Below, in pieces: positions 5,040-38,908 of a DNA stretch of 40,354 nucleotides. The first letter of the stretch is position 1; each line of letters opens with the position of its first letter. The stretch spans positions 1 to 40,354 of the forward strand of contig JALUXI010000223.1 in the NCBI GenBank assembly GCA_027019045.1. Direction: 5' to 3'. Position numbers and translations under genes: made by a program. The stretch is from Piscirickettsiaceae bacterium (GTDB lineage Bacteria > Pseudomonadota > Gammaproteobacteria > Thiomicrospirales > Thiomicrospiraceae). Below the pieces are notes generated by a model. It did no database searches. It had not been told where the DNA came from and worked only from the letters and a program-made list of their open reading frames with translations.

Positions 5040-5091
5040 ATTAGTTTCTCTAAATTGCTTAATGGAATATTGCTCAATATCACTCTTCTTT

Positions 5092-5233
5092 GTAACTACT
5101 CAGTTAACACCGTAACTGCTCAGATTGCCCCTGAAATTCGTCAATTCAAGGCAGAAAATGTGAGTTTACAAGTCGTAAATGGCCATTTTCCAACGCAGAA
5201 GTGTCGGATTTCAGGGGTGAGCTGAGTAGTTAC
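5092..5233. mobile_element. MITE family 1, copy 1 (142 bp foldback element)
   Basis: Termini are GTAACTACTCAG (5092-5103) and CTGAGTAGTTAC (5222-5233). Internal inverted repeat CCCCTGAAAT/ATTTCAGGGG. An exact 8-bp direct repeat TCTTCTTT flanks it (5084-5091 and 5234-5241). Related copies lie at 6783 and 14660. Confidence 0.8.
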
Positions 5234-7397: not shown

Positions 7398-8705
7398 TTA
7401 CTTATCCCCCTTCAAACGGGAGATACCAAGCATCTTCATAATATATTTCTGATAAATTGGTTCAGAATTCCCTGACTTCATATTACGAATGAAGTATTTC
7501 TCAAATGCAATCTTAGCCAAGTGAACCCACTTTCCTTTTTTTGCCCATGTTAGGTTACGAGGTGGAATCTGAGGCAAGGCAACAAATGCTGCTCCAGTAT
7601 CCCCCATATCTGCTAGACAAATTGTATTCCAAGTTGGCTCAGCATCAGGCTCTTTACCTTCAAGATTCGCTTCAATGTTATGACAAATAGCGGTAACCAT
7701 TGACTCGATCATCAAACCAGTCTTAGGTGTCCCTACCGGTACAGGTGTCGCTTCAACAGGTGGAATCGCAATCCCCACACCCAAGGCATAAATATTATGG
7801 TATGTTGGGTTACGGCTGTATTGATCCACTTTGACAAAACCACGAGGGTTCACTAATGGCCCCCCCATATTGTCTGGTTGCACCAAGTCTTGTAAGAATT
7901 GAGAGCCTTTAAAAGCTGGCAACATCATGCTGTATTTAAATGGCAATTCGTGTGTATTGATTACTTCACCTTGCATATTATGCTCTTTTACATACATTTT
8001 GCCATCTTCAATTTTCTCAACGGCAGCATTACAAATCCACTTAATATGGCGGTTACGCATTTCAGACTCAAGCAGACCGTTAGAGTCACCCACCCCACCT
8101 AGACCAAGGTGACCAATATAAGGCTCAGAGGTTACAAAAGTCATCGGGACTTGTGCACGCAATTTACGCTTACGCAAATCCGTATCCATAATCATCGCAA
8201 ATTCATAAGCAGGACCATAGCAAGAAGCCCCTTGAACAGCACCTACAATAATAGGTCCTGGGTTTTCGCAAAATTCTTCCCACTGCTCATGTGCCTCTGC
8301 TGCATGAGGTGTTGTACAAACAGAAACGGTATTTCCACCTTGGCTTTTAGGACCAAAGCCTTCTACTTCATGGAATGCTAAGGTCGGCCCTGTTGCCAAA
8401 ACCAAATAGTCATATTCCATTTCAGAACCATTGCTCAAAGTTAACTTATTGTTATCTGGATCTAAAGCAGTAACCGTTTCATGATAAAACTCAATCCCTT
8501 TTCGAGTAAGATGTGGCTCCAATTTAAAAGAGATATCTTCTGGTTTACGCCACCCTACAGCGACCCAAGGGTTTGATGGAACGAAGGTAAATTCTTCATA
8601 AGCATTTACAACTTTAATAGTATGCTCTTTACCAAGATGCTTACGAATATCATAAGCCATGGGAAGACCACCCGTACTGGATCCTACAACGACGATTGTT
8701 GCCAT
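7398..8705 (-). CDS. sqr: sulfide:quinone oxidoreductase, type I
   Basis: 435 aa. N-terminal dinucleotide fold IVVVGSSTGGLPMAY. Three cysteines in the SQR contexts VSVCTTPH (C130), GASCYGPAYE (C162) and TICLADMGD (C363); positions are my own count. C-terminal amphipathic helices KIAFEKYFIRNMKSGNSEPIYQKYIMKMLGI. Confidence 0.9.
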   Translation of the reverse strand: MATIVVVGSSTGGLPMAYDIRKHLGKEHTIKVVNAYEEFTFVPSNPWVAVGWRKPEDISFKLEPHLTRKGIEFYHETVTALDPDNNKLTLSNGSEMEYDYLVLATGPTLAFHEVEGFGPKSQGGNTVSVCTTPHAAEAHEQWEEFCENPGPIIVGAVQGASCYGPAYEFAMIMDTDLRKRKLRAQVPMTFVTSEPYIGHLGLGGVGDSNGLLESEMRNRHIKWICNAAVEKIEDGKMYVKEHNMQGEVINTHELPFKYSMMLPAFKGSQFLQDLVQPDNMGGPLVNPRGFVKVDQYSRNPTYHNIYALGVGIAIPPVEATPVPVGTPKTGLMIESMVTAICHNIEANLEGKEPDAEPTWNTICLADMGDTGAAFVALPQIPPRNLTWAKKGKWVHLAKIAFEKYFIRNMKSGNSEPIYQKYIMKMLGISRLKGDK

Positions 8706-8907: not shown

Positions 8908-10131
8908 TTATGATTTGCTTATAATTATTGCAGGCACCCAATTCAATACCACCCATGTCATCACTAACAAAGAAGAGATTACCATAAAACTCTCTTTTTG
9001 AATCAATATGTTATCACTAAATAACAACACTCCCACTCCAACAATCAATAAAATACTCGTCACCCAAATGGGGCGCCCAATACTGACTAAAGTAAAGCGA
9101 ATCGCCTGTTCAGGTTGCTGAAAAAACCCTCTCTTTGCCCGCAAATAACGCACAAAAAAATGGATACCATCGTCAACAATCAACCCCAAAGGCACCACTA
9201 ACATCCAAGCCTGAAGTGTCTCATCCTGCCACAATATCCAAATAGTCGCCACAATAACAATACTATACATCCCTAAGACCATATTTAACAAAGCGTACCA
9301 CACACTTTTCCATACAATGGCAAGCAAGAGCGTCAAGCCAAAAAATACGCCTAACAATTGGTGCCAAACCTCCTGCCCATGCAAGCGAGGCAGAATCCAC
9401 CATAAAGCTACACCACCCAACAGCATCCCTATACCAAAAATGAAACGACTTATTCTAGGATGCAACTTTAAAAAATTCACTACACCACCTAAACCATGGC
9501 GATCTTTCGGCTCCCCAACACGACATTCAATCAGCCAATTCAATAAAATCCACGGCAACCATGAACCACTGACCCAAAGGCTAAATAACGCTCCCAGTCC
9601 CACTATCCATGCCATTTCTCTCAAAGAAGGTTCAAACCAAGCTGCCACAATAAAGCTCACTGCGGTGGTCACATTGGACAAAACCACAGGTTGAAAATTC
9701 AGTTGCAACGCTTCTGACAAGGCATCATGTTGAAACTGCCCTCTCGCCATCTCTCGGTGTAACCCAGTCAACAGATGCACTAAATTACTTATCAGCATCG
9801 TCACCACCACCAAGAAAGCTAATGAGGCCAACCCATCTTTGCCCTCAAGCGGCATCCCTAGCCAACCCAAAGCGCCTGTCACCATCAATAAAATACCAAA
9901 CGAAAATAACAACATCAGCAAAGCAGTTTTAATCGACTGCATCAACCAAGCCGCCACCAAGCTCATCGCCAATAAACTCAACCCCAGCAATCCCATCTGC
10001 ATAAAGTCATGCATAGAAAAATAAACATTTCCCAGCAGCACACCTAAAGTCACCCCTGAAAACACCCCCAAAGCAAATAAACGGTTGTGCAGTAGCCACA
10101 CCACCCAATGAAAAGCCCACTGATTCTGCAT
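8908..10131 (-). CDS. 12-TM RND/MMPL (sterol-sensing-domain)-like membrane protein lacking periplasmic loops
   Basis: 407 aa and almost entirely hydrophobic; I count about 12 TM segments. The second half carries the RND TM4-like motif PLGLIVDDGIHFFVRYLRAKRG followed by the usual TM5/TM6 pattern. The first half is a degenerate copy (VVVTMLISNLVHLLTGLHREMARG). SD GAGGAAAGGG precedes ATG 10131. Confidence 0.55.
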   Translation of the reverse strand: MQNQWAFHWVVWLLHNRLFALGVFSGVTLGVLLGNVYFSMHDFMQMGLLGLSLLAMSLVAAWLMQSIKTALLMLLFSFGILLMVTGALGWLGMPLEGKDGLASLAFLVVVTMLISNLVHLLTGLHREMARGQFQHDALSEALQLNFQPVVLSNVTTAVSFIVAAWFEPSLREMAWIVGLGALFSLWVSGSWLPWILLNWLIECRVGEPKDRHGLGGVVNFLKLHPRISRFIFGIGMLLGGVALWWILPRLHGQEVWHQLLGVFFGLTLLLAIVWKSVWYALLNMVLGMYSIVIVATIWILWQDETLQAWMLVVPLGLIVDDGIHFFVRYLRAKRGFFQQPEQAIRFTLVSIGRPIWVTSILLIVGVGVLLFSDNILIQKESFMVISSLLVMTWVVLNWVPAIIISKS

Positions 10132-27109: not shown

Positions 27110-27412
27110 TTATTGACCCAAGTTGCCCCGCTGCAAAATGGGCAGCACTCGATAGGCAATGGTTAAAGAAGGAAGGTTTTTTTCTATTGTTTCCAATATA
27201 GGGGCAAGCTGTTCATCTTTCAGCTCAACCTCAAATTTAACTTTATGTTGAGCGCCTTTCACCTGCTCATTTGCTGAAAGCTGTTCATGTGGCTGACCGT
27301 AACCATCCGTATCTATCGCTGTAAAAAAGGGGAGGTTCTCCTGTGCCAATAAAAAGTCACTCAATAAATATGCTTGCTTTTCTGGCACAATCAGCTGAAG
27401 TAATTGACTCAT
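27110..27412 (-). CDS. DUF3240-like small PII-fold protein associated with heavy-metal RND pumps (tentative)
   Basis: 100 aa. ATGA overlap with the czcA stop. Its size, position after an HME-RND gene and FTAIDTDGYG motif recall DUF3240. Confidence 0.45.
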   Translation of the reverse strand: MSQLLQLIVPEKQAYLLSDFLLAQENLPFFTAIDTDGYGQPHEQLSANEQVKGAQHKVKFEVELKDEQLAPILETIEKNLPSLTIAYRVLPILQRGNLGQ

Positions 27413-30400
27413 ACCATCTCTCCTTTCAAGGCTTGTTTCTGCTTAAACTGCTCTACCATCCGATAAACAATCGGTAAAATCAAGAGGGTTAATAGGGTAG
27501 AGGTAATCAAGCCACCAATCACCACAATCGCCAAAGGCCGTTGAATTTCAGAGCCTGGGCCTGTTGCCAATGCAAGGGGAATCAGCCCTAACATGGCAAT
27601 ACTGGCGGTCATCAGTACAGGGCGCAGTCGGCGTTTTGCCCCTTCTACCACCACCTGCTCTAAAGGCAATCCTTGGCTCCGTAACTGGTTAAAGTAACTG
27701 ACCATCACCACTCCATTGAGTACCGCTATCCCCAGTAGCGCAATAAAGCCAACAGAAGCAGGGACAGAGAGATATTCCCCTGTGAACCACAAAGCCACAA
27801 TCCCGCCAATCATGGCCAAAGGCACATTGAGCATAATCATCAAACTCTCTGCAACCGATTTAAAGGTAGCAAAAAGAATCAAGAAAATCATTGCTAAAGC
27901 AATCGGTACCACGATGCTTAGTCTTTCTGCCGCTCGCTGCTGGTTTTCAAAAGTCCCCCCCCACTCAAAATAGTAGCCCGTTGGAACTTTCATTTGAGCA
28001 GCTTTCTGTTTTGCCTCTTCAACAAAACTCACCAAGTCTCGTCCTTCAATATAAGCCACCACGACCGAATAGCGTTTACTCATTTCTCGTTTAATCGAGA
28101 CAGGACCTTCCACGGACTGCACTTTTACCACTTGACTAAGCGTGACACTCTCCCCATTCTTCAAGGGGATCTCCAAGTTGAGAAAATCTCGCCGAGCCTT
28201 TGCCACATCACCGCCTGTTTTAATCAACAATGGAATGCGGCGAATATCTTGATAGATGGTGCCAACAGGCAAACCTTCTAGCTGGGCTCTTAAAAGATCT
28301 TCAATCATATCAACATCCAAGCCTAATCGCCCAGCAGCCATACGATCCACCTCAAGCTTTAGATAACGAGACCCTTCATTTACAGGGGTATAAACATTAG
28401 ACGCACCTGGAATGGTTTTTAATACCTCAACCAGTTGCTTAGCTGTTTCATTCAGCTTTTCAGGATTGTCACCAAAGACTTTCACCGCTAAATCACCACG
28501 CACCCCTGTTAGCATCTCATCCACACGCATCTGAATCGGTTGAGTAAAGGCATAATTAATCCCAGGGAAGTAGGTATCCAATACCTTTTTGATTTCAGCT
28601 TGGAGTTCAGTTTTGGTCTGCATCCGCCACTCTGATTTAGGCTTTAGTACCATAAAGGTATCAGTGTCATTTAGCCCCATGGGATCCATTCCTATCTCAT
28701 CAGCGCCCACTCGACCAATCATACTCTTCACCTCTGGCACATGCGCCATAATAGCCGCTTGAATGCGTTTGTCTAACTCCATAGAGGCTTCTAAACTAAT
28801 AGAGGCCGCTTTTTCAATCTGCAAGACAATGGTGCCTTCATCCATCTGTGGCATAAAACTTTTACCCACTTGGGTAAAGACAACACCTGCCCCAATTAAA
28901 GCAACCAATGCAAATCCAATCACAACTTTTGGCATCTGCAGTGCCTTATGTAAAACGGGCGTATAAACAGCAAGAAGTTTACGAATTAACCAAGGGTCTT
29001 CATGCTTGATTTTGCCCAACAACATTGAAGCCAGTGCAGGAATAACCGTAAGAGACAGTACCACTGCCGCCCCCAAAGCAAATACAATGGTGATGGCAAC
29101 AGGAGAAAAGAGCTTGCCCTCCAACCCTTGCAAGGTCAGCAAAGGCAAAAATACAATCATGATAATGCCAATCCCTGAAATCACAGGTACCGCCACCTCT
29201 CTTACGGCACGATAAATCAAATGCGACTTAGGCAGTTTACCTTGACTTTTCTCCATATGGGTGACGATATTTTCAACCACCACCACAGCCGCATCCACCA
29301 GCATCCCAATAGCAATCACCAGCCCACCTAATGACATCAGGTTGGCACTTAAGCCATACCATCGCATCAAAACAAAAGTTGTTAAAATGGCCAATGGTAA
29401 AATCACCGCAACCGCTATTGCCGCCCGCAGATTTCCAAGGAAAACAAATAATAGAACCACCACCAATATAACGGCCTCTATCAATGCTTTACTTACTGTC
29501 CAAGTTGCCTGATTGACTAAGTCGGAGCGATCGTAAAAAACATTAAAAGTAATGCCCTCTGGCAAAGCAGGCTCAAGCTGTTGAATTTTTGCTTTCACGC
29601 CCTGAATCACTTCACGGGCATTCGCACCTTTCAACCCAATAACCAATCCTTGAACAGCTTCTCCTTTACCATCTTTGGTCACACCGCCATAACGGGTTAA
29701 ATGACTGACTACTACATCTGCGACATCACGCACCAATATCGGTACACCCGATTGAGCAGTTCGTACAACTGTATTTTGAATATCTGCCAAAGAAGTAAAG
29801 TTACCCGCCGTTCTCACCAAAAGCGTCTCCTCCCCTTCTGTTAACCGACCTGCCCCATCATTGCGGTTATTGCGTTCTAAAGCTACCCGTAACTGCTCAA
29901 AGGTCACCTGATGCGCTCGCATCTTGGTCATATCAGGGCGAACTGCAAAGGCTCTGGCATAGCCTCCCATGGTATTCATATCCGCCACTCCTGGAACTGA
30001 GCGCAAAGCAGGACGAATGACCCAATCCAACAGATCTCGTTTTTCCATATCTGTTAACGAGTCCCCCTCAAGGGTAAACATAAACATATCCCCTAAAGGA
30101 GTGGCAATGGGAGTTAATCCACCCGAAACACCCACAGGCAATTCAGCTCCACTAAGGCGCTCTGTCACCTGCTGTCTTGCCCAATAAATATCCACGCCCT
30201 CTTCAAATTCCAGCGTAATATCGGCAATCCCATATTTTGATTGAGAGCGTAATAAAGTCTCACCTGGAATCCCTAAAAGCTCCATCTCCAAAGGGGCAAT
30301 AACACGGTCTTCCACTTCTTTTGGTGTCATCCCAGGGGCTTTAAAGATTAACTTAACTTGAACGGGCGATACCTCAGGGAACGCATCTATTGGCGTTTTC

Positions 30401-30498
30401 ACCATCGCCATCCAACCGCCTCCCAAAATGGCAGCAACCAACATCAAAACCAAAAGGCGTTGAGAAAGAAAAAACCCTATCAATCGTTCAATGAGCAT
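27409..30498 (-). CDS. czcA: heavy-metal efflux RND permease (CzcA/CusA family)
   Basis: HME-type TM4 motif GGLVIAIGMLVDAAVVVVENI and 12-TM RND architecture. I prefer ATG 30496-30498 (MLIERLIGFF...), which has AGGAGG upstream and an 11-nt overlap with the czcB stop, over the ORF-track start at 30528. Confidence 0.9.
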   Translation of the reverse strand: MLIERLIGFFLSQRLLVLMLVAAILGGGWMAMVKTPIDAFPEVSPVQVKLIFKAPGMTPKEVEDRVIAPLEMELLGIPGETLLRSQSKYGIADITLEFEEGVDIYWARQQVTERLSGAELPVGVSGGLTPIATPLGDMFMFTLEGDSLTDMEKRDLLDWVIRPALRSVPGVADMNTMGGYARAFAVRPDMTKMRAHQVTFEQLRVALERNNRNDGAGRLTEGEETLLVRTAGNFTSLADIQNTVVRTAQSGVPILVRDVADVVVSHLTRYGGVTKDGKGEAVQGLVIGLKGANAREVIQGVKAKIQQLEPALPEGITFNVFYDRSDLVNQATWTVSKALIEAVILVVVLLFVFLGNLRAAIAVAVILPLAILTTFVLMRWYGLSANLMSLGGLVIAIGMLVDAAVVVVENIVTHMEKSQGKLPKSHLIYRAVREVAVPVISGIGIIMIVFLPLLTLQGLEGKLFSPVAITIVFALGAAVVLSLTVIPALASMLLGKIKHEDPWLIRKLLAVYTPVLHKALQMPKVVIGFALVALIGAGVVFTQVGKSFMPQMDEGTIVLQIEKAASISLEASMELDKRIQAAIMAHVPEVKSMIGRVGADEIGMDPMGLNDTDTFMVLKPKSEWRMQTKTELQAEIKKVLDTYFPGINYAFTQPIQMRVDEMLTGVRGDLAVKVFGDNPEKLNETAKQLVEVLKTIPGASNVYTPVNEGSRYLKLEVDRMAAGRLGLDVDMIEDLLRAQLEGLPVGTIYQDIRRIPLLIKTGGDVAKARRDFLNLEIPLKNGESVTLSQVVKVQSVEGPVSIKREMSKRYSVVVAYIEGRDLVSFVEEAKQKAAQMKVPTGYYFEWGGTFENQQRAAERLSIVVPIALAMIFLILFATFKSVAESLMIMLNVPLAMIGGIVALWFTGEYLSVPASVGFIALLGIAVLNGVVMVSYFNQLRSQGLPLEQVVVEGAKRRLRPVLMTASIAMLGLIPLALATGPGSEIQRPLAIVVIGGLITSTLLTLLILPIVYRMVEQFKQKQALKGEMV

Positions 30499-31651
30499 GA
30501 CTCGCCCCTCCTTCTCCTTCTCCTTCACCTTCCATCATGCCTTTTAAGAAAATGGCTCCAAAGCTAACCACCTGTGTCTCTGCATCAGGTGTTTCAGCCA
30601 AAGCTACTGTTGCGCTATGGCCATCCCGTTCAATCAACTCAACCACTTGTGGCTCAATATGCTCACCCTCTTTAACAAAAATGGCTGACACACCTTCTAA
30701 ATCCACCACAGCACGACTGGGAACTTGATACGCCTGCTTCGGAGTCCCTTGAATAAAATGCACCCGAACAAAAGTACCTGGAAGCAGCTGACCCTTTAAT
30801 TGTTCAAAGCGTACATGCACGCTCACTCTTTGGGTTTCGGGGTCTGCTTGGTTGGCAATATAAGCCACCTGACCAATAATGGGGTATCCTTCAACTGACA
30901 CTTTCTGCCCGACAAAAATACGACTCAACTCATTCATTGGCAGCATCACATCAGCAATCAGGTGGTTATTTTCTCCAATATGCACCAAAGGGGTATTGGC
31001 TTCTATGCGTTGGTTTCGCTCTACCTGCAAATCAAACAACATGCCCTCTTTAGGAGATTTTAATGTTAACCACCGCTGCAATTTTCCTGTTTGGCGAAGC
31101 TGATTCATTTGTTCTTGGGACATCCCTACAATCTTTAAGGCTTGTTGAGAGGCTTCTACTGCGGTACGAGCCTGGGTACGCTCTGTTTGAGCAATCAAAA
31201 ACTGTTTCTCGGATAAACTGCCCGCTTTAAACAGCCTTTGCGCCCGTTTAAAGTTGCGTTCCGCTTGCGCTTTTTGTGCCAAGGCATCCAGCCAATCTTG
31301 CTGCATTTTTACCCACTGTTCACTCTCTAATTCAAAGAGAGGTTGTTCTGCTTTTACCGCACCATGCACTACAAAAATTTTGTGTATCTTGCCACTCACA
31401 GGAGAAGCCACCATATCCTGATGTGCCAAAGGCAGTTCCATCTGTGCAGGCCAAGCATAGCCTGAAACTTGAGTCACAGGAGTCAAAGCAGAAAACTGCA
31501 ATCCCAATGCTTTAATTTGTGCTTCATTCAATTCCAACCCCATTTCCTCATGGTGTTCTGCCTCTCCATGTGCTTGTTCATGCCCTTCTTCTGCTTGAAT
31601 CGAACCACTCATTGCCAGTGCCATTGCACCGATTAAAACCCATGATTTCAT
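30488..31651 (-). CDS. czcB: heavy-metal efflux membrane fusion protein (CzcB/CusB family)
   Basis: 387 aa. Signal peptide, a His/Glu-rich N-terminus (EEGHEQAHGEAEHHEE), a coiled-coil hairpin, and a C-terminal GEGEGEGGASHAH. Confidence 0.85.
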   Translation of the reverse strand: MKSWVLIGAMALAMSGSIQAEEGHEQAHGEAEHHEEMGLELNEAQIKALGLQFSALTPVTQVSGYAWPAQMELPLAHQDMVASPVSGKIHKIFVVHGAVKAEQPLFELESEQWVKMQQDWLDALAQKAQAERNFKRAQRLFKAGSLSEKQFLIAQTERTQARTAVEASQQALKIVGMSQEQMNQLRQTGKLQRWLTLKSPKEGMLFDLQVERNQRIEANTPLVHIGENNHLIADVMLPMNELSRIFVGQKVSVEGYPIIGQVAYIANQADPETQRVSVHVRFEQLKGQLLPGTFVRVHFIQGTPKQAYQVPSRAVVDLEGVSAIFVKEGEHIEPQVVELIERDGHSATVALAETPDAETQVVSFGAIFLKGMMEGEGEGEGGASHAH

Positions 31652-31653
31652 TG

Positions 31654-32892
31654 TTATTCTCCTGCTTGTTGATTAAGGTGTCGCACTGCTTGGTGAACCG
31701 CCAATTCTGCTAAGGCAACACTGAGTGCAGTATTTAATTGAGTCTGTTGAGCAATCAGAAGATCTCTTAAAGAGATCTCACCCTGCTTCCAAACCTGCTC
31801 AGATAATTTAAGGGCTTCATTTGCCGCTGCTAGCTGTTGCCGTATTGGAGCCAATCGAGCTTTTGCTTCTAACAACTGAGCTTGGGCGGCAATGAGGGCC
31901 TGACGAATATCTCTTTTAGTCAAATTCAACTCAACCTGTTTTTGCTGTTGTTCCAATTTAGCATCCGCCTTTGCCATTTTAAAATCACTGCTCTGCCCCA
32001 GTGGAAAAGCAATTTTAGCGACCAGAAGGTGATCATCCTTCACACCATCTGCTTGTTTTTGTCGTATTCCTAAATACAGCTCCTGACCCTGCTTTGCTTC
32101 CCAAACCGACTTTTCAGACTGTGCAATGCTTAGCCGTTGCTGTGCTTGAAGGTAAAGAACTTGGGGATGCTTCTGAATCAGAGCATCCAAGTCTGAAAAA
32201 GAAACGGGCGTAGGGTGAACCTTCAATAACACTTTCATTTCAGAAACTGGAAGCGAAATCCCCCAAGCTTTCAATAATGGCTGAGTGGCCTTGAGTGCTG
32301 CCTCACTGCCTGCTGCTCGAGCCTGAGCCTCGCTCAATTGCTGCTTGGCTAAGGCCAAATCTAACCGACTGCCTGCCCCCGCTTTCACCTGAGCTTCAAC
32401 CATCTCATATAGACGCTTAGCCTGTTGCAGTCTTTGTTGATTATTTTGTGAAATCAATAACTGCTTAGAAACCGTATCCAACAAATTGCGTGCAATACCA
32501 CGAGATTTCCAAGCCAACCAAGCTTGCTGATGCTTGCCTAACTGTGCATACCCTTTAGACAGCTCGTTAAAAACATCTTCTTGATTCAAACGCTTAAGTG
32601 GAAAACTTGCCCCCACTTCAATATTAGACACCCCATTTCGGCCAATTAACTGTCCATTTTCTACACTCAATGACAGCGTTGTATTCCCCCATAGGTTTTG
32701 ACCTGCAGATTGAATATTTGACTGCACATCATGATAAGTCTCTGCCAAAATCTTTTCGGGTTGGTTTTTTAGAATATGCTGACTCCAAACCTTGACAGGG
32801 TTTTCGCTACCAAGGGTTGATTCAGCGATACTAGAGAGAGGAAAAATGGCTGCAGAGAGCAACCAAGGAAAGAGTTTGAGTTTGAATTTCAT
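31654..32892 (-). CDS. czcC: TolC-family outer-membrane factor (CzcC-like)
   Basis: 412 aa. Signal peptide, two-repeat coiled-coil/beta organisation, first gene of the C-B-A order. Confidence 0.8.
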   Translation of the reverse strand: MKFKLKLFPWLLSAAIFPLSSIAESTLGSENPVKVWSQHILKNQPEKILAETYHDVQSNIQSAGQNLWGNTTLSLSVENGQLIGRNGVSNIEVGASFPLKRLNQEDVFNELSKGYAQLGKHQQAWLAWKSRGIARNLLDTVSKQLLISQNNQQRLQQAKRLYEMVEAQVKAGAGSRLDLALAKQQLSEAQARAAGSEAALKATQPLLKAWGISLPVSEMKVLLKVHPTPVSFSDLDALIQKHPQVLYLQAQQRLSIAQSEKSVWEAKQGQELYLGIRQKQADGVKDDHLLVAKIAFPLGQSSDFKMAKADAKLEQQQKQVELNLTKRDIRQALIAAQAQLLEAKARLAPIRQQLAAANEALKLSEQVWKQGEISLRDLLIAQQTQLNTALSVALAELAVHQAVRHLNQQAGE

Positions 32893-32962
32893 TTTTTCAG
32901 TCCACTTTTTTAAATTGTGAACTGAGTTTACAAGAAAAAGCTGAATTGAAGCTGAAAGAGAC

Positions 32963-34303
32963 TTACAAAAAAGTGATCACAATGCGCAAACCACCTAACT
33001 GACTGTGTTCAAACTGAAGCTTGGCACCATATTGATTCACTATATCTTGCACTACTGCCAGACCAATGCCATTTTCAGAGCGTCTTTCATCCAACCTTTT
33101 CCCTCTCTGCCCTAAAGCATCTAACTGCTCATCTGGCACCCCAATACCATCATCTTCCACAATCAACCTCACGCCCTCTTGTTCCATTTCACAACGCACA
33201 AAAACCCTTTTTTGCGCCCATTTACACGCATTATCCAGCAGATTCCCCAGTAACTCATATCCATCCTCCTTTTCCATGGGAAGCTGCTCAATAGAATCAA
33301 TGTATGTCTTAAATTCAATATTTGGATAAAGACGCTTTAAACTCTCCATTAAAGCAGACAAGTCCGCTTGTAAAGAAAAGCGCTCATCCGAAAGTACAGT
33401 TCCCGATACCCTTGCCTGCTTCAGTGTGCGCTCCATCAAGGCTTGCAGTCGATGAGCCTGTTGCTGAAGCTGTTGCCTGACTTCAGGACAAGCATTCAAC
33501 TGAGCATCCTCTAAAATTTGAAAAATAACCTGCAATGGGGTTTTTAAGCTATGTGCCAGATCGGCATTGGCATGCCGAAATCGCTCAAGCTGTTCATGCA
33601 GCTCGGTCAAAGTTTGCCTCAAGGCTTGTACTAAAGGGGCGACCTCCAGAGGCAAATTCTCAGGCAACTGATTTAAAGCTTCAGGTTGATGCTGTGCCTG
33701 CTCAACCACTGACTGTACTGATTGAAGAGGCGCTAAGCTTTTATGCAAAAATCGACGCACCCACCCAATCATTCCCATCATCACTATCAACGCAATGGCC
33801 GAAAAAATGACATCAAATTTTTGCAAAGCTTGTTGAATCGGCAAATGATTCTCAGCCACATAAACCCTAACCTCATGCCCCTGCTTTTGTGCAAGCGTAA
33901 ACAGCACCAAAACACCCCTCTCCTTACCCTGTTCATCAGGTGCCAAAGTTTCATATGGATTCTCAGGCGGAACATCAGGTGTCCACAAATGATACCCATT
34001 TAAAGAGGGAGAAGAGAGACGCTGTTGGCCAGAGAGGATGACATAATAGTGTCCACTATAAGGACGCAGGTAAATAGGTTCAATCGCTTTTTGATTGAAT
34101 GCAAGTTGACCATTTTTAAAATGGATATGACGCAAAAGCTGCTCAGTATCATGATCAAGACGAGTGACTAAATACTGCTCTACCAAAGAGTGAATCGTCC
34201 AAGTCGTCCCCGCCCAAAGTGCCAAGAACACAATGGTCAAGCCACTAAACAATCCAAACTGAAGACGCTGCTGAATACTTTTCTGACTTTCTAGAGCTGC
34301 CAC
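32963..34303 (-). CDS. two-component sensor histidine kinase
   Basis: 446 aa. Two TM segments flank a periplasmic domain. H-box DLAHSLKTPL, N-box LLGNLLDNACKW, G-boxes EDDGIGV and GIGLAVV. GTG start (34301-34303) overlaps the regulator's TAG by 1 nt. Confidence 0.88.
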   Translation of the reverse strand: MAALESQKSIQQRLQFGLFSGLTIVFLALWAGTTWTIHSLVEQYLVTRLDHDTEQLLRHIHFKNGQLAFNQKAIEPIYLRPYSGHYYVILSGQQRLSSPSLNGYHLWTPDVPPENPYETLAPDEQGKERGVLVLFTLAQKQGHEVRVYVAENHLPIQQALQKFDVIFSAIALIVMMGMIGWVRRFLHKSLAPLQSVQSVVEQAQHQPEALNQLPENLPLEVAPLVQALRQTLTELHEQLERFRHANADLAHSLKTPLQVIFQILEDAQLNACPEVRQQLQQQAHRLQALMERTLKQARVSGTVLSDERFSLQADLSALMESLKRLYPNIEFKTYIDSIEQLPMEKEDGYELLGNLLDNACKWAQKRVFVRCEMEQEGVRLIVEDDGIGVPDEQLDALGQRGKRLDERRSENGIGLAVVQDIVNQYGAKLQFEHSQLGGLRIVITFL

Positions 34304-34971
34304 TAATCGGTCTCCTCACACAACTGATACCCTTGCCCTCTCAAAGTTTTAATTCGTTTGGCGCCAACCAACCTACGCAAGCGGCTAATATACACCTCCA
34401 CCATATTTAAATCCTTATCATCAGAGTCTTCAGTCATCAACTCCATTAAATAAACTTTACTTAACACCTGTCCAGGACGACGCATCAATGCACTCAATAG
34501 GGTAAACTCCACAGCCGTTAAAGTATGCCTCTTCCCATCCACCGTCACCTCTTTACGAGCCAAATTCAAAATTAAGTCCCCCACCTGTATGGTCTCACCG
34601 TCCTCAGTCACACCCAAACGGCGAAGCAACGCCACAATTCGAGCTTGCAGCTCCTCAAAATGAAACGGCTTGCCCACATAATCATCCGCCCCTGCCTGCA
34701 ACCCTTCTACCCGCTCTTGCCAAGCATTACGAGCGGTCAATATCAGAACAGGCGTCTTATCTCCCGCTGCTCGTCTTTGCTGTAACAGCGACAAACCATC
34801 CAACTTTGGTAAGCCCAAATCCAATAACACTAAATCAAAATCCTCTTCCTGCCAATACCAAAGACCCTCTTCTCCATCCGCTGCAGTCTGCACCGAATAG
34901 CCTAATTTTTCTAATGCCTGTTTTAAATGCTTAGCAATCAAAGACTCATCTTCAACCAAAAGTATCCGCAT
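34303..34971 (-). CDS. OmpR/PhoB-family response regulator
   Basis: 222 aa. Receiver domain (MRILLVEDE...DLVLLDLGLP...) plus a winged-helix output domain (VEVYISRLRRLV...IKTLRGQGYQL). Confidence 0.92.
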   Translation of the reverse strand: MRILLVEDESLIAKHLKQALEKLGYSVQTAADGEEGLWYWQEEDFDLVLLDLGLPKLDGLSLLQQRRAAGDKTPVLILTARNAWQERVEGLQAGADDYVGKPFHFEELQARIVALLRRLGVTEDGETIQVGDLILNLARKEVTVDGKRHTLTAVEFTLLSALMRRPGQVLSKVYLMELMTEDSDDKDLNMVEVYISRLRRLVGAKRIKTLRGQGYQLCEETD

Positions 34972-35093
34972 CCACTCCTCCTTTTATTTGCTCAACATCC
35001 TACCATAATCACCGCAGACCACTGAAGTAAGACAAAGACCTATTCTTCTTTACAAGCAAGCAACATTTAATCCTATCTATTCAGGAATTGGAT

Positions 35094-35112
35094 GTAAATG
35101 CAAACAATTATC
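35094..35112 (+). promoter_or_regulatory. Fur-box-like site 1
   Basis: GTAAATGCAAACAATTATC matches the consensus GATAATGATAATCATTATC at 13/19 positions (hand count). It abuts the predicted -35. Confidence 0.45.
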
Positions 35113-35113
35113 A

Positions 35114-35142
35114 TTGACTTTATTGTATCGATTAAATAAAAT
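35114..35142 (+). promoter_or_regulatory. predicted sigma70 promoter of the porin/FMN/PepSY cluster
   Basis: TTGACT (35114-35119), a 17-nt spacer, then TAAAAT (35137-35142). It lies about 95 nt upstream of ATG 35236. Confidence 0.45.
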
Positions 35143-35147
35143 CCCTT

Positions 35148-35166
35148 CCAGTTGTTAATAATTATC
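35148..35166 (+). promoter_or_regulatory. Fur-box-like site 2
   Basis: CCAGTTGTTAATAATTATC matches the Fur consensus at 12/19 positions (hand count), with the 3' 13 nt matching best. It lies just downstream of the predicted -10. Confidence 0.35.
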
Positions 35167-35235
35167 ACTTGCATTAGCAACTAACACTCATTACGTATAT
35201 CACACTTTTATCCAATTTAAAATGGAGCCACAAAA

Positions 35236-36390
35236 ATGTTCAATTTTTCTAAAATCCCCAGTCCCGCACTGCTAGCAATTACAATGACTTCTCCATACAC
35301 TGTAATGGCCGATGATACTAATCAACAAATCAGCCAACTCAGCCAACAAGTCTCCGAATTACAACAACAAGTGAATCTCCTTGCTGACCATACCAATACG
35401 CCCGCCACTCAAACTCAAGTAGGCGGCTATGGGGAGTTGCACTATAACAATCTCACCACCCGTCAAAATGGCACCACTCTATCAGAGAAAAAGGAACTGG
35501 ACTTTCACCGATTTGTTTTATTTATCAACCACCAATTTGATGAAAAAGTTCGTTTTTTTTCCGAGTTAGAATTGGAACATAGCATTGCGGGTGAAGGTCA
35601 AAAAGGAGAGGTTGAGCTTGAACAAGCCTATATAGAAATGGATCTCACCCCTCAGACTCGACTGAAAGCGGGCATACTCCTTCAGCCGATTGGAATTCTT
35701 AATGAAACCCATGAACCTAATACTTTTTATGGTGTTGAAAGAAACCCTGTTGAGAAAAACCTCATTCCAGCTACTTGGTGGAGTGGCGGAATCGCATTGA
35801 GTCATCAAATTGGACAAACTGGAAAAGTGGACTTTTTGATTGGGGAAGGCCTTAAAACCAGTGATGGATATAGCATTCGTAAAGGTCGTCAAAAAACTGC
35901 TAAAGCCAATGCAAATGACCTTTCCTATACCGTTCGACTTCAATTTAACCCCAACCCTGGATTCAATATTGGCGGTAGCGTCCATTATGAAAGCAATATT
36001 GCCCAAAGTACTCTTCCCAATGCTTCTGATGCCATGCTTTTAGAAGGTCATCTCCAATATCAAAAAAATCAGTTGGGGTTAAAAGCATTGTATGCACAGT
36101 GGCAAATTCAAGGCAGTGTAGCTAAGAATGCCCATGCTAACCGCCAAATAGGTTTTTATATTGAACCAAGCTACCTAGTCACCGAAAAGATTGGACTTTT
36201 CACTCGATACAATCAATGGAATAACTCAACAACTTCTGATTTAGAAGATACACAAGTAAATATCGGTATCAACTATTGGCCACACCCAAATGTTGTCTTT
36301 AAAGCAGACTATCAATGGTTGAATGATGGACGAGTTGGGAGCGATAAAGAAACCAATGGATTTAACCTTGCTGTAGGTTATCAATTTTAA
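35236..36390 (+). CDS. outer-membrane beta-barrel, porin-like, with N-terminal coiled-coil
   Basis: 384 aa. GGAG SD 8 nt upstream. Atypical signal peptide ending VMA/DD. Q-rich heptads QQISQLSQQVSELQQQVNLL, then alternating-hydrophobic strands. C-terminal LAVGYQF is a barrel signature with terminal Phe. Confidence 0.6.
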   Translation: MFNFSKIPSPALLAITMTSPYTVMADDTNQQISQLSQQVSELQQQVNLLADHTNTPATQTQVGGYGELHYNNLTTRQNGTTLSEKKELDFHRFVLFINHQFDEKVRFFSELELEHSIAGEGQKGEVELEQAYIEMDLTPQTRLKAGILLQPIGILNETHEPNTFYGVERNPVEKNLIPATWWSGGIALSHQIGQTGKVDFLIGEGLKTSDGYSIRKGRQKTAKANANDLSYTVRLQFNPNPGFNIGGSVHYESNIAQSTLPNASDAMLLEGHLQYQKNQLGLKALYAQWQIQGSVAKNAHANRQIGFYIEPSYLVTEKIGLFTRYNQWNNSTTSDLEDTQVNIGINYWPHPNVVFKADYQWLNDGRVGSDKETNGFNLAVGYQF

Positions 36391-36469
36391 TACCTACACT
36401 GCATTTTAAACTTTACCCCTGCACACTTTGATTTTTCATCGTGTGCTTTCCGTTTAAAAGGGATATGTC

Positions 36470-37006
36470 ATGAAAAAATGTTTCAGCCTGACCACTTTTT
36501 GGCTACTTTTATTTGCTGGACAGCGTTATGCCTTAGCCTTCTATACCCCTGAAGGAGCCGCATTAGCACAACAATTTATTAGTCAATCAACAAACCCTCA
36601 ACTTCAAAAACAGTATCTTTGGCTAACCCCACAAATCCAAGCCCAAATACAAGCCATTCTTGGACATCGCTACCCAAAAATTCGCCTACCTTATTGGCAG
36701 CACCAAAATAAAAATACATTTATTTGGGTGCTGGAAGAAAAGGGCAAAGACCTTCCTATAACGGTCGGCATTGTGATTAAGGATCAAAAAATCGATCAAC
36801 TGAGGATTCTTAAGTTTCGTGAAAGTCGAGGTTGGGAGGTCAAATATCCCAGCTTTACCCAACAATTCAATCATGCACAGATCAAACAAAACCAGCTGTC
36901 CAAACAAATTGATGGTATCAGCGGAGCCACCTTATCCGTCAATGCCGTCAAAAAACTCGCTAAACTGGCACTTATACTAACGCATGAAGTGGAAAATAAA
37001 AAATGA
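36470..37006 (+). CDS. periplasmic FMN-binding-domain protein
   Basis: 178 aa. Signal peptide MKKCFSLTTFWLLLFAGQRYALA. FMN_bind-type motif IDGISGATLSVNAV, which is the flavinylated Thr context known from NqrC/RnfG. Confidence 0.7.
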   Translation: MKKCFSLTTFWLLLFAGQRYALAFYTPEGAALAQQFISQSTNPQLQKQYLWLTPQIQAQIQAILGHRYPKIRLPYWQHQNKNTFIWVLEEKGKDLPITVGIVIKDQKIDQLRILKFRESRGWEVKYPSFTQQFNHAQIKQNQLSKQIDGISGATLSVNAVKKLAKLALILTHEVENKK

Positions 37007-37752
37007 ACAGATTCCAGTTACAAAAAATAGCTCGACGATTTCATAAGTCATTGGCCTATTTTGTCGCTCTCGGCCTTTTTTGGTTTACAACGACTGGATT
37101 TTTGCTAAATCATACAGAGGACTTTAAACTAGATCAACAAACCATCCACTCACCTTGGCTTTTAAAGCTATTCCATTTTGAGCCACTTCTTCCTCACCAG
37201 CTGGTGACACTACCGAATGCAGAAATCATTACCACCAATTATGGCAGCTTCTGGAATCAAAAACTGATTCTTCCCAACGAACAGGTAAAAGAAGCCACTC
37301 TCTACCCCTTTCAAGGCATGACAACTTATCTACTACTCACAAATCAAAACGCCCTATATATCGTTACACCTGATGGAGACATCATCGAAAGACGCCAAAT
37401 ACCTATAAGTCACTTATGTACACTTAAAAAACAGATAGGAATTTGCACAACTCATCAATTTTTAACCCTTAATCATGACTTAAGTGCGTTCGAAAAAGTC
37501 AATATCCTTAATGAACCAACAACTGAACAACTTATCAATCATCAATCTATTTCCATCAACCAACTGCCCGAAAGACTCTTGAAAAACTGGAAAAGCCCCC
37601 TATCATGGGAAGACCTTATTTTAAAGATGCACAACGGCGTTCTGTTTCAGTCTATTGGAAAATGGATACTAGATATTTTTACCTTCATACTATTACTCTT
37701 TATAATAAGCGGCTTAATTTTAACCTTAAAAAAAAGACAACCCATTAAATGA
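37003..37752 (+). CDS. PepSY-associated-TM-type membrane protein (2 TM, periplasmic middle domain)
   Basis: 249 aa. ATGA overlap with the upstream gene. N-terminal RRFHKSLAYFVALGLFWFTTTGFLLNH and C-terminal KMHNGVLFQSIGKWILDIFTFILLLFIISGLIL both resemble PepSY_TM helices with conserved His. Confidence 0.6.
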   Translation: MNRFQLQKIARRFHKSLAYFVALGLFWFTTTGFLLNHTEDFKLDQQTIHSPWLLKLFHFEPLLPHQLVTLPNAEIITTNYGSFWNQKLILPNEQVKEATLYPFQGMTTYLLLTNQNALYIVTPDGDIIERRQIPISHLCTLKKQIGICTTHQFLTLNHDLSAFEKVNILNEPTTEQLINHQSISINQLPERLLKNWKSPLSWEDLILKMHNGVLFQSIGKWILDIFTFILLLFIISGLILTLKKRQPIK

Positions 37753-38846
37753 AAAAATTCAACTTTAAACAAACACTCCTCCTCCTTTCAATAATGGGGG
37801 CAACCCAACCAGCTTTCGCCAATAGCCCTTGGCAGATTGAAGGGGATTTAACGGGCATTGCACAAACAAGCAACCAATCTCAACTGGAACCTGGTTTTGA
37901 GTCATCGGGCGATCTTTTTATAACCTACCAAAACAATCAGTGGCAAGGCACGCTTCACTTAGAGGGAAATACTACACCTAGACAAAATAGTGTGACCAGT
38001 CAAATAGCAGACAGTAATGCAGATGCCTTTTCAGCCACAGATCAATATGACAATGGTCGTATTCAGCTTTCTGAACTCTTTTTAAGCTTTAAAACTACAC
38101 GCTCAGACATCCTTCAACAACTGGATTTTGGAATATTAGATGCCACTGCGCTATTTGATACACACCCCATTATGAATGATGAAAACACACAATTTATCGC
38201 CTCATCCCTTGTCAACAATCCGACAATTGATTTCCCTGACTATACACTGGGAGTTGTTGCCACGCTGAATGCAGGCTTAAAGCCCAACCGTCAGAGTTTT
38301 GTAGGCATTTACTCAGGCGAAGGACTCGCTGACAGCGCAAGCAGGGATTATAATGAAACTCTTGATGTTGCCCCCGATAAAAAAGGGCTTTTTATTATTG
38401 CGGAAACCCAAATCATTGATACTTCTATTCATCATCTTTCTACTGGTGCTTGGATTCATACAGGTCCCCATACAGAATTGGACAACCCAAACAATGATGA
38501 TTTGAAAAACTACGGTATTTATTTAACAGCCAGTCATCAAATGCAGAAAAATACCATTGGAATGCATTTGGGCTATGCCAACCCAGAAGTGAATGATTAC
38601 AATATGGCGGTCAGCTTAAGTGTCGAACACACTTACAATTCTCAATGGACAGCAGGACTAGGAGGAACCTATCAATCTGCCTCTAGCCATACCCAGCTTA
38701 AAGACCGTCAAACCATTGAGGCCTATGGTCGTTACCAACTCAATCAAAGTGATGTTTATCTCACCCCATCGGTACAGTATTTAACCCATACCGACATCGG
38801 TAAAGATGTGATGACTGCCAATATAAGATTGAGCTATCTGTTTTAG
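37749..38846 (+). CDS. second outer-membrane beta-barrel (porin-like)
   Basis: 365 aa. ATGA overlap. Signal peptide ...GATQPAFA. Alternating strand pattern. C-terminal ANIRLSYLF. Confidence 0.6.
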   Translation: MKKFNFKQTLLLLSIMGATQPAFANSPWQIEGDLTGIAQTSNQSQLEPGFESSGDLFITYQNNQWQGTLHLEGNTTPRQNSVTSQIADSNADAFSATDQYDNGRIQLSELFLSFKTTRSDILQQLDFGILDATALFDTHPIMNDENTQFIASSLVNNPTIDFPDYTLGVVATLNAGLKPNRQSFVGIYSGEGLADSASRDYNETLDVAPDKKGLFIIAETQIIDTSIHHLSTGAWIHTGPHTELDNPNNDDLKNYGIYLTASHQMQKNTIGMHLGYANPEVNDYNMAVSLSVEHTYNSQWTAGLGGTYQSASSHTQLKDRQTIEAYGRYQLNQSDVYLTPSVQYLTHTDIGKDVMTANIRLSYLF

Positions 38847-38873: not shown

Positions 38874-38908
38874 AAAAAATGCCGCAACTTTGCGGCATTG
38901 TCATTTTC
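38874..38908. terminator. bidirectional terminator between the second barrel gene and hemJ
   Basis: A6, then ATGCCGCA (38879-38886), loop ACTT, TGCGGCAT (38891-38898). The T-run is strong on the minus strand (hemJ) and weaker on the plus strand. Confidence 0.7.

Follow-up and report, generated by a model that had tools for sequence, protein, structure and literature searches.

What does a bacterium do with two outer-membrane barrels, a periplasmic flavoprotein, and a small inner-membrane protein that are encoded in one operon, behind sites that resemble Fur boxes? The question arises from four genes on contig JALUXI010000223.1 of a Piscirickettsiaceae bacterium (GenBank assembly GCA_027019045.1). 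All 40,354 nucleotides of this stretch were analyzed, and we refer to it as the window; the genes are called g1 to g4, in their order on the forward strand. A preliminary description of the window, made from its letters alone, had proposed that these genes form an iron-starvation-induced module, with two barrels that serve a substrate and a flavoprotein/PepSY-TM pair that reduces it. On comparative evidence, the reducing couple is plausible, but one of the two barrels, g4, turned out to be an accessory. We consider it probable, if well short of certain, that the operon encodes an iron-starvation-induced, TonB-independent reductive iron-acquisition module.

Three genes that are kept together

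We compared the window to 13 further loci, all of which were reached through relatives of g3: L014 to L017 came from a scan of a genome collection, L018 to L020 from a metagenome scan, and L021 to L026 from exact look-ups of distant members of the g3 family. (The narrow g3 alignment that was used for the locus scans reaches Thiomicrospirales-like relatives only.) Genes g1, g2, and g3 occur together in all 13 loci, even where g3 is just 20 to 25% identical, and in 12 of the 13 their order and strand are the same as in the window; in L016, g1 is divergent. In contrast, g4 is present in none of the 13. Because every other locus carries g1, g2, and g3 and none carries g4, the comparison indicates that the conserved functional unit is the triad of a porin, an FMN_bind protein, and a short PepSY_TM protein, and not a set of four genes. 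The co-conservation that had been expected of all four genes thus holds for the first three.

The named hosts of the triad are Hydrogenovibrio sp. 3SP14C1, Thiomicrorhabdus arctica DSM 13458, metagenome-assembled genomes (MAGs) of Thiosulfatimonas and Thiomicrorhabdus, and a Methylococcales MAG; most of the other hosts are MAGs of Gammaproteobacteria. Judging from these sequences, the triad is widespread and conserved among marine Gammaproteobacteria that have been little studied. We did not find a TonB-dependent receptor in the window or within 5 to 6 kb of the triad in the 13 other loci.

The protein at the center of the triad, g2, matches the FMN_bind (flavin mononucleotide-binding) model with E = 3.6e-11 and has weak similarity to RnfG and NqrC. 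By inspection, its N-terminus (MKKCFSLTTFWLLLFAGQRYALA) looks like a cleavable signal peptide, and its single cysteine lies inside that peptide. Residues 151 to 154 are SGAT, within IDGISGATLSV, and eight divergent orthologs preserve both DGI(S/T)GATLSV and FRESRGWEV with little or no variation (one locus has T for S). [S/T]GA[S/T] is the ApbE-type flavinylation motif (PMC8238504), and g2 is a predicted substrate for flavinylation by ApbE at Thr154. A comparison of g2 to the PDB gave no significant match.

The third protein, g3, has a transmembrane helix at each end. PepSY_TM (PF03929) matches the C-terminal helix (7e-9, 36.3 bits; cutoff 28.8), and PepSY_TM_like_2 (PF16357) matches the N-terminal helix at 1e-5 and 26.1 bits, which is just below the cutoff of 27. 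All 65 of the family members that we tested match both models (the best match to PF16357 is 6.4e-12), and a few members also touch the cytochrome b561 or DUF4405 models. In a full HMMER scan, the family comprised 688 cluster representatives, nearly all of which have 230 to 270 amino acids and match from end to end. Three histidines are invariant or nearly so across the family: His14 and His37 of the first transmembrane helix and His210, before the second. The AlphaFold2 (AF2) model of g3 (pLDDT 88.8) has helices at residues 3 to 36 and 213 to 244 and 12 short strands between them, which we read as three putative propeller-like blades of four strands each. The distribution of lysine and arginine puts both termini in the cytoplasm. 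There are two cysteines.

The profile of the g3 family also matches the siderophore reductase FoxB (7ABW; E = 1.8e-5). The N-terminal helix of g3, with the motif HRxxG, aligns with the first transmembrane helix of FoxB and, weakly, with the third; the C-terminal segment, with the motif LHxGR, aligns with the fourth helix and, weakly, with the second. His14 aligns with the histidine of the HR motif in helices 1 and 3 of FoxB, and His210 aligns with the histidine of the HxG motif in helices 2 and 4. Because its two helices each align with two helices of FoxB, g3 resembles half of the four-helix core that is internally duplicated in FoxB. Each of the two hemes of FoxB is bound via two conserved histidine residues. 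We view g3 as a putative heme-b electron carrier, and a homodimer of g3 would supply the four histidines of FoxB. Overall, the comparative evidence shows the FMN_bind protein and the PepSY_TM protein to be what one would expect of an electron-transfer (reductase) couple in the periplasm.

The porin of the triad, g1, begins with a signal-peptide-like sequence, continues with a Q-rich heptad segment (DDTNQQISQLSQQVSELQQQVNLLADH), and ends with VGYQF; it has about 320 mature residues and no cysteine. It scores above the Pfam cutoffs for OMP_b-brl (33.9 bits; cutoff 28.7) and Porin_4 (27.3; cutoff 27), and of eight members of its family, six match Porin_4 and five match Porin_O_P. Searching the PDB with the sequence of g1 gave no matches. 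With the family profile, the best match in the PDB, which is marginal (E = 0.008), was to a chain of 8BYS/8BYM that consists of a coiled-coil stalk plus a barrel and was deposited as an S-layer homology (SLH) domain-containing protein; the match covers the stalk and the first strands. We take this chain to be the Veillonella porin OmpM. Across 12 loci, g1 is 40 to 55% identical, as compared to 20 to 31% for g3 across the same loci, and the g1 family retains a mean column identity of 50% in loci where that of g3 has fallen to about 22%. The invariant motifs of g1 include GYGE, DFHRFV, SExExEH, THEPxTFYGxxR, and NYWPH, and many histidines, glutamates, and arginines are invariant. A general diffusion porin would not usually be so conserved, which hints at a specific channel that possibly binds metal.

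The fourth protein, g4, is predicted to be a 16-strand barrel (AF2 model, pLDDT 90.8), and its top match in Foldseek is OprB from P. putida (4GEY; E = 2.6e-16, TM score 0.72). It ends in LSYLF and has no cysteine. Although g4 itself has no direct match in Pfam, OprB (PF04966) matches 22 of 40 homologs, with a best E-value of 4.3e-13; the g4 family profile had no match among PDB sequences. We found g4 joined to g2 and g3 only in the lineage of the window and in L011, which starts at the codons for the C-terminus of g2. In L013, a metagenomic contig whose SlyD is 93% identical, a 54%-identical g4 stands alone, directly behind a promoter that matches the g1 promoter of the window. When we compared L013:1-132 to positions 35090-35238 of the window, the block with the first Fur box and the -35 element (AAATGCAAAyAATTATCATTGAC) was identical at 24 of 25 positions, and the -10 block (TTAAATAAAATCCC) was identical. 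The L013 contig ends just upstream of this promoter, and the sequence before it is unseen. Either g1, g2, and g3 were inserted between the promoter and g4 in the lineage of the window or they were deleted in L013. These arrangements indicate that g4 is an accessory second porin that has been added to the triad in the lineage of the window, where it is translationally coupled to g3.

Two side observations concern g4. First, a promoter-like sequence, TTTACC-17-TATAAT (10/12), lies at 37678-37706, in the 3' end of g3 and 43 nt upstream of the start of g4; this consensus match might allow for independent expression of g4. Second, distant homologs of g4 are found beside ExbB-ExbD in Thiosulfativibrio, beside ZnuA/ABC-3 in Mariprofundus, or in unrelated contexts. 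In Thiosulfativibrio zosterae (AP021888.1; L006:7001-9881), a g4-like OprB porin with 38% identity occupies the same slot, between RimO and HemJ-SlyD. After it, in the same orientation, come ExbB, ExbD, and a 269-amino-acid protein that has no match in Pfam and is possibly TonB-like. A porin with TonB-system genes is an unusual pairing, and there is no good Fur box upstream (the best is 12/19).

The preliminary description had recognized all four proteins in outline. Its account of g1 as porin-like, with a signal peptide, a Q-rich coiled coil, and a VGYQF end, agrees with the Pfam porin models, and its barrel for g4, with the LSYLF end, is borne out by the 16-strand model and the match to OprB. 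It had called g2 a secreted protein with the flavinylation-type motif DGISGATLS, which fits with the FMN_bind match and with the conservation of this motif in eight loci. Finally, it had placed histidine-containing helices of the PepSY_TM type at both ends of g3, around a periplasmic domain, as do the Pfam matches, the invariant histidines, and the AF2 model.

Fur-type boxes and gene context

To describe the control region, we used consensus matching, with a 19-mer (GATAATGATAATCATTATC) and with a 7-1-7 core (TGATAATnATTATCA, 14 scored positions). The preliminary description had noticed a TTGACT-17-TAAAAT promoter bracketed by two Fur-box-like sites, and the consensus scans recovered this arrangement. 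Of its hand counts, 13/19 and 12/19, the first matches a site that we found, but the other site scores 14/19. The first box abuts and overlaps the -35 hexamer; its core match, at 35099-35113, has three mismatches, and the 19-mer matches at 13/19 both at 35100-35118 and at 35094-35112. The second box, TGTTAATAATTATCA, lies downstream of the -10 element and over the likely transcription start. It is the only match to TGATAATnATTATCA with one mismatch in the 40-kb window, and its 19-mer score of 14/19 is tied for the best in the window.

Matches of this quality are rare. Just 26 of about 80,000 positions in the window have a 19-mer score of 13 or more. The window has 7 sites with up to three core mismatches, where 2.7 would be expected; among 100 shuffles, 1 had that many. 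When the 220-nt upstream region was shuffled 2,000 times, a core score of 13/14 was never reached. One box at the -35 element and another over the likely start is the classical arrangement for repression.

The same layout, with a box at the -35 element and a box after the -10 element, recurs before orthologous operons whose proteins are only 20 to 55% identical. A site that is equivalent to the first box and adjoins the -35 element is present in L014, L017, L018, and L023, and a second box is at the expected position in L013, L014, L018, L023, and L025. Upstream of the triad, the core scores are 12/14 in L014 and L018 (Hydrogenovibrio) and 11/14 in L017 and L021. L023 has a perfect second box (TGATAATCATTATCA, 14/14) as well as a 12/14 site at the -35 element, and L025 has a perfect second box (TGATAATTATTATCA, 14/14) directly after a TTGACA-17-CATACT promoter; neither perfect site was matched in 2,000 shuffles. 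Reading by eye, we found TTGACA or TTGACT, a 17-nt spacer, and a -10-like hexamer before g1 in L014, L015, L017, L023, and L025. Across 12 loci, 16 of the 41 clusters of sites scoring at least 11/14 lie in the 2.5 kb of sequence that immediately precedes g1 or g4; the number expected there is 0.67 (24-fold enrichment). Overall, the operon's membership in the Fur regulon, and hence its regulation by iron, is well supported by sequence. The induction by iron starvation that had been proposed is likewise favored by the retention of Fur-type boxes upstream of orthologous operons in distant lineages.

Where the context of the triad is informative, it points to iron as well. In L022, bacterioferritin and Bfd are encoded upstream of the triad, and an Fbp-class ABC importer is encoded downstream; L026 has the same importer. 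The importer genes (L022:2180-9565 and L026:7194-10980) encode a substrate-binding protein, a fused double permease, and an ATPase with TOBE_2. Their best matches in NCBIfam are to 2-aminoethylphosphonate (2-AEP) and thiamine-class models and are far below the cutoffs. With matches that far below the cutoffs, in a class that spans Fe(III), 2-AEP, and thiamine, we rejected the importer as proof of an iron substrate. In a different locus, L021, a gene for a small c-type cytochrome (112 amino acids; L021:2731-3069) lies about 200 nt upstream of the triad's porin gene, on the same strand. In the lineage of L021, this cytochrome might exchange electrons with the system as an alternative partner.

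In the window, the neighbors of the operon suggest another metal. The operon adjoins genes for an OmpR-family response regulator (best models PmrA/PhoP), a PhoQ-like histidine kinase, and a CzcCBA-like resistance-nodulation-division (RND) pump (OEP, membrane-fusion protein, and ACR_tran). Beyond the end of the window, downstream of slyD, L001 contains CzcD, CopA/CopB-like, and DUF302 genes. We therefore considered whether the operon might be a copper module, or a module for some other metal, of a neighboring metal island: g2 and g3 would reduce Cu(II) or another metal in the periplasm, a role that has been proposed for the PepSY_TM protein CrpH, and the divergent response regulator and the kinase would control expression. 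PepSY_TM proteins can serve copper, as shown by CrpH (PMC13038864), and a PepSY cluster in Shewanella, so1188-1190, is under the control of both Fur and a response regulator (PMC2535785). However, none of the 13 other triad loci have the efflux neighborhood, and in both L006 and L011, the orthologs of the regulator and the kinase are downstream of slyD instead, so their adjacency to the operon here looks like a local rearrangement. Also, the conserved cis element is the canonical Fur palindrome, which is perfect in L023 and L025, and the informative contexts (bacterioferritin, Bfd, and the Fbp-class importer) point to iron. We consider the copper explanation to be quite improbable. Because the other loci do not share the efflux genes, and the orthologs of the regulator and kinase sit elsewhere, we treated the heavy-metal-efflux neighborhood as coincidental. 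We also rejected the neighboring regulator and kinase as the main control of the operon, as the neighborhood is not conserved.

The layout of the operon itself is as the preliminary description had it, with four co-directional genes, a 79-nt spacer between g1 and g2, and ATGA overlaps at g2/g3 and g3/g4 (Table 1). The weak hairpin that it noted in the spacer is real but modest. This hairpin is possibly a partial attenuator or an mRNA-stabilizing element; no clean U-tract follows it. The hairpin downstream of g4 marks the end of the operon, before the convergent gene hemJ. Searches of the window's open reading frames of at least 120 amino acids against Pfam agreed that there is no TonB-dependent receptor, ApbE, or Fe(II) permease (Feo), and Rfam and tRNA scans of the window gave no matches.

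The window has a G+C content of 44%. Its RimO is 81 to 85% identical to those of Hydrogenovibrio, Thiomicrorhabdus, and Thiosulfativibrio, and its housekeeping genes resemble those of sulfur-oxidizing Thiomicrospirales. Identical copies of the region were found in metagenome assemblies only. Elsewhere in the window, a second RND-type pump (1272-6417, reverse strand) comprises a 1,255-amino-acid ACR_tran protein and an HlyD-family membrane-fusion protein; a C-terminal extension past the end of the Pfam match, at residue 1064, accounts for the unusual length of the former. A 435-amino-acid Pyr_redox_2 flavoprotein (7398-8705, reverse strand) adjoins a 407-amino-acid open reading frame without a match in Pfam (8908-10131, reverse strand). 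We take the flavoprotein to be similar to sulfide:quinone oxidoreductase, which fits with a sulfur-oxidizing host.

Table 1. Positions of the operon's genes, control sites, and hairpins, and of the adjacent efflux genes, in the window
Feature	Position	Strand	Description
Fur-box-like site 1	35099-35118	+	TGCAAACAATTATCA (core 11/14); 19-mer GCAAACAATTATCATTGAC (13/19)
Promoter TTGACT-17-TAAAAT	35114-35142	+	Sigma-70-type; 10/12 in consensus scan, best of its kind in the region
Fur-box-like site 2	35153-35172	+	TGTTAATAATTATCA; core 13/14 (35153-35167); 19-mer 14/19 (35154-35172)
g1	35236-36390	+	Open reading frame, 384 amino acids; outer-membrane porin with N-terminal coiled coil
g1-g2 spacer hairpin	36417-36462	+	Minimum free energy -15.7 kcal/mol, z = -2.66; 2 of 200 shuffles fold as well
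g2	36470-37006	+	Open reading frame, 178 amino acids; secreted FMN_bind protein
g3	37003-37752	+	Open reading frame, 249 amino acids; inner-membrane protein of PepSY_TM type with two transmembrane helices
g4	37749-38846	+	Open reading frame, 365 amino acids; OprB-type 16-strand porin
Intrinsic-terminator-like hairpin	38878-38899	both	9-bp stem with 5 GC pairs; between g4 and hemJ
CzcCBA-like RND operon with response regulator and histidine kinase	27409-34971	-	Pfam/model matches

A proposed reductive route for iron

In the reading that we favor, low iron would cause Fur to release the promoter. Fe(III) in small forms, either as inorganic iron or as low-molecular-weight chelates, would diffuse into the periplasm through g1, which is probably a trimer held together by its N-terminal coiled coil; in the lineage of the window, the OprB-type porin g4 would be a second entry pore with the same role. 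In the inner membrane, g3 would probably form a homodimer, in which the two pairs of transmembrane helices rebuild a FoxB-like core with four helices, four histidines, and two b-type hemes, and it would carry electrons across the membrane from the quinol pool or from a cytoplasmic donor. After export, g2 would be flavinylated on Thr154 by a housekeeping ApbE that is encoded elsewhere in the genome. Its covalent FMN would take electrons from g3 and reduce Fe(III) to Fe(II), and the Fe(II) would be imported by a transporter that is also encoded elsewhere, such as Feo. In some relatives, the adjacent Fbp-class ABC importer may take the import role. In this scheme, we infer the flavinylation, the heme binding, the dimerization, the direction of electron flow, the substrate of the porin, and the fate of the Fe(II). 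We favor electron flow toward Fe(III) because the midpoint potential of FMN is low, which favors the reduction of Fe(III) over the oxidation of Fe(II), and because the relatives VciB and FoxB are reductases.

Several observations weigh against a reductive iron module. First, neither the window nor the 5 to 6 kb around the other triads encodes an ApbE, an Fe(II) permease, or an electron donor, and the surroundings of the operon in the window relate to heavy-metal efflux, not to iron. Second, the Fur boxes of the window are imperfect (13/14 and 11/14), the matches are weak in L022 and L024, and they reach 11/14 at most in L015 and L019. Third, the nearest Pfam models of g1 describe general and phosphate porins. 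Fourth, the dimer and the hemes of g3 are deduced from a weak profile alignment, in which two of the four FoxB segments are individually insignificant. Finally, the periplasmic part of g3 does not contain a PepSY domain according to Pfam, the AF2 model, or Foldseek, and its Foldseek matches are weak and propeller/WD40-like (E of about 2e-3, TM score of about 0.3).

Some of these observations would also suit an uptake system that runs in the opposite direction or that has no redox role. In the oxidative version, Fe(II) or another small solute would enter by the porin, and g2 and g3 would oxidize Fe(II) for an Fbp-type importer; such importers normally carry Fe(III), and they directly follow the triad in L022 and L026. 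In the non-redox version, the propeller-like domain of g3 would bind or chaperone the substrate, and the flavoprotein would have another redox task in the periplasm, such as protection from iron-driven oxidative stress. That the periplasmic domain of g3 is unlike the PepSY domains of known reductases, and that no locus links an Fe(II) transporter to the triad, could be expected under either version. However, the oxidation of Fe(II) by FMN is thermodynamically uphill, and the characterized relatives (VciB, FoxB, FpvG, and others) are all reductases. Furthermore, just 2 of the 14 loci have the importer, and its matches in NCBIfam are far below the cutoffs. We consider oxidative or non-redox uptake, taken together, to be quite improbable.

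The preliminary description had also suggested that the operon might be a flavin-based counterpart of a porin-cytochrome conduit. A barrel would then house or present the flavoprotein, and electrons would pass across the outer membrane to or from Fe(III) or Fe(II) minerals outside the cell, in the service of respiration or lithotrophy rather than of assimilation. The porin gene is linked to the redox pair in all 13 loci, and g1 is unusually conserved, with many invariant histidines and glutamates; the hosts include chemolithoautotrophs from vents and sediments (Hydrogenovibrio and Thiomicrorhabdus), the window has a gene similar to sulfide:quinone oxidoreductase, and in L021 the small c-type cytochrome gene is just upstream. 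However, g4 is a standard 16-strand OprB-like barrel, and g1, which has roughly 320 mature residues, finds its matches among general and phosphate porins. The sheaths of MtrB type, with 26 strands, are far larger, and a 17-kDa domain could not fit inside a barrel of the size of g1 or g4. None of g1 to g4 contains CXXCH, and g1 and g4 have no cysteine at all. Fur-type repression points to assimilation rather than to energy metabolism, and a single FMN with at most two hemes is not a wire. Because of the size of the barrels and the lack of CXXCH motifs, we rejected the porin-cytochrome conduit, and we give the broader idea of a trans-outer-membrane electron conduit even less credence than the copper or oxidative explanations.

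A more ambitious form of the reductive iron module is that the porin, the flavoprotein, and the half-FoxB protein are physically coupled in one trans-envelope machine. The porin would be a trimer whose coiled-coil stalk extends into the periplasm, and a homodimer of g3 would build a di-heme bundle of four helices, topped by a six-bladed pseudo-propeller formed from two halves of three blades each. Flavinylated g2 would sit where the pore opens and would carry out the final reduction of Fe(III). We consider such a machine unlikely. If it did exist, it would be a third general route for iron across the envelope of Gram-negative bacteria, one that needs neither siderophores nor TonB; it would be common among uncultured Gammaproteobacteria from marine waters and sediments, and it would have a metal-selective porin family, with invariant histidines and glutamates, at its core.

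TonB-dependent receptors are the usual explanation for how iron crosses the outer membrane of Gram-negative bacteria. Reductive uptake by way of porins has been established chiefly in cyanobacteria, where the reductase is only loosely defined. The operon described here contains a compact unit of three genes that are strongly conserved together, with Fur boxes upstream. In this unit, a dedicated porin is linked with a defined flavoprotein of the periplasm and with a minimal, cytochrome-like PepSY_TM protein. Two of the hosts, Thiomicrorhabdus arctica DSM 13458 and Hydrogenovibrio sp. 3SP14C1, are in culture. If the reductive iron module is correct, then the predicted PepSY-like flavinylated systems would gain a minimal example that is experimentally tractable, and FoxB-type reductases would be seen to have arisen by fusion from an ancestor that was simpler and dimeric. 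It would also identify a porin family that is possibly selective for iron species, and the triad would aid the annotation of iron acquisition in metagenomes from vents, from sediments, and of methanotrophs, where siderophore systems are sparse.

Relation to known systems

Meheust et al. (2021) identified 3,220 PepSY-like flavinylated clusters, which occur in Gram-negative bacteria, were defined bioinformatically, and were proposed to reduce iron in the periplasm (PMC8238504). In Shewanella and Caulobacter, clusters of PepSY-like and flavinylated proteins are repressed by Fur (PMC8238504). These systems have a PepSY-like protein (PF03929/PF16357) beside a secreted protein with [S/T]GA[S/T]. Similarly, g3 is PepSY-like, and the adjacent g2 is an FMN_bind protein with a signal peptide and a conserved [S/T]GA[S/T] motif; by the sequence criteria of this operational definition, g2 and g3 belong to the PepSY-like flavinylated systems. 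However, the typical clusters contain ApbE, DUF2271, DUF4198, and sometimes a TonB-type gene or VIT1, whereas here there is no ApbE, DUF2271, or DUF4198, and the substrate is an FMN_bind protein. Also, the genes here include an invariant, dedicated coiled-coil porin and a short protein with two transmembrane helices and a propeller-like domain. The word "porin" does not occur in the main text of Meheust et al. (PMC8238504). The preliminary description did not know of this combination as a described system: the pairing of FMN_bind and PepSY is in Meheust et al. 2021, but the porin is unmentioned there. In the literature that we searched, which omits most subscription journals, no paper combines PepSY, an FMN-binding protein, and a porin, and the g1 porin family and the half-FoxB architecture are not described. 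We rejected an equivalence with the Fur target so1188-so1190 of Shewanella, whose annotation includes an inner-membrane protein and a periplasmic component of an ABC-type Co2+ transporter but no porin or FMN_bind protein. Presumably, so1188-so1190 is of the PepSY + DUF2271 + DUF4198 type.

With FoxB and FpvG, g3 shares HRxxG on the N-terminal helix, HxGR before the C-terminal helix, and a presumed transfer of electrons by heme b to Fe(III) in the periplasm. However, FoxB has 382 amino acids, four transmembrane helices, and two hemes per chain, whereas g3 has 249 amino acids, two transmembrane helices, and one copy of each motif. The four helices and four histidines in one chain, the PepSY domains, and the linkage to a TonB-dependent receptor that mark FoxB and FpvG are all absent from g3. 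FoxB and FpvG are linked genetically to TonB-dependent siderophore receptors; g3 is linked instead to porins and a flavoprotein.

Like g3, VciB from Vibrio cholerae (COG3295/PepSY_TM_like_2) is a small PepSY_TM-like protein of the inner membrane, and it stimulates the reduction of Fe(III) for Fe(II) transporters. VciB is linked to the TonB-dependent receptor VciA. In work by Peng and Payne from 2017, it is said to have two transmembrane helices, to form a dimer, and to require conserved histidines. VciB has ferric reductase activity (PMC8238504; PMC12004947). It was reported not to be associated with flavinylation components (PMC8238504), whereas g3 adjoins the gene for a flavoprotein. Our comparison of VciB to g3 was made through shared Pfam models.

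As in MtrCAB and other porin-cytochrome conduits, the genes for outer-membrane barrels are in an operon with periplasmic and inner-membrane redox proteins. In contrast to those conduits, there are no multiheme cytochromes and no CXXCH motifs here, the barrels are the size of ordinary porins, and the Fur-type control suggests assimilation. As to the barrels themselves, we know of no cyanobacterial iron porin that is described as operon-linked to a flavoprotein/PepSY_TM pair. Cyanobacterial porins of the OprB type, such as Slr1908 from Synechocystis, respond to iron and provide for the TonB-independent entry of inorganic iron (PMC8707739, PMC9723758). These porins carry an SLH domain (PMC8707739), which g4 does not, but the OprB fold is common to both. 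Lastly, CrpH from Bordetella pertussis has at least four transmembrane segments, shares an operon with a copper importer that is TonB-dependent, and is copper-responsive, whereas the operon in the window has a Fur box and links its PepSY_TM protein to porins and a flavoprotein.

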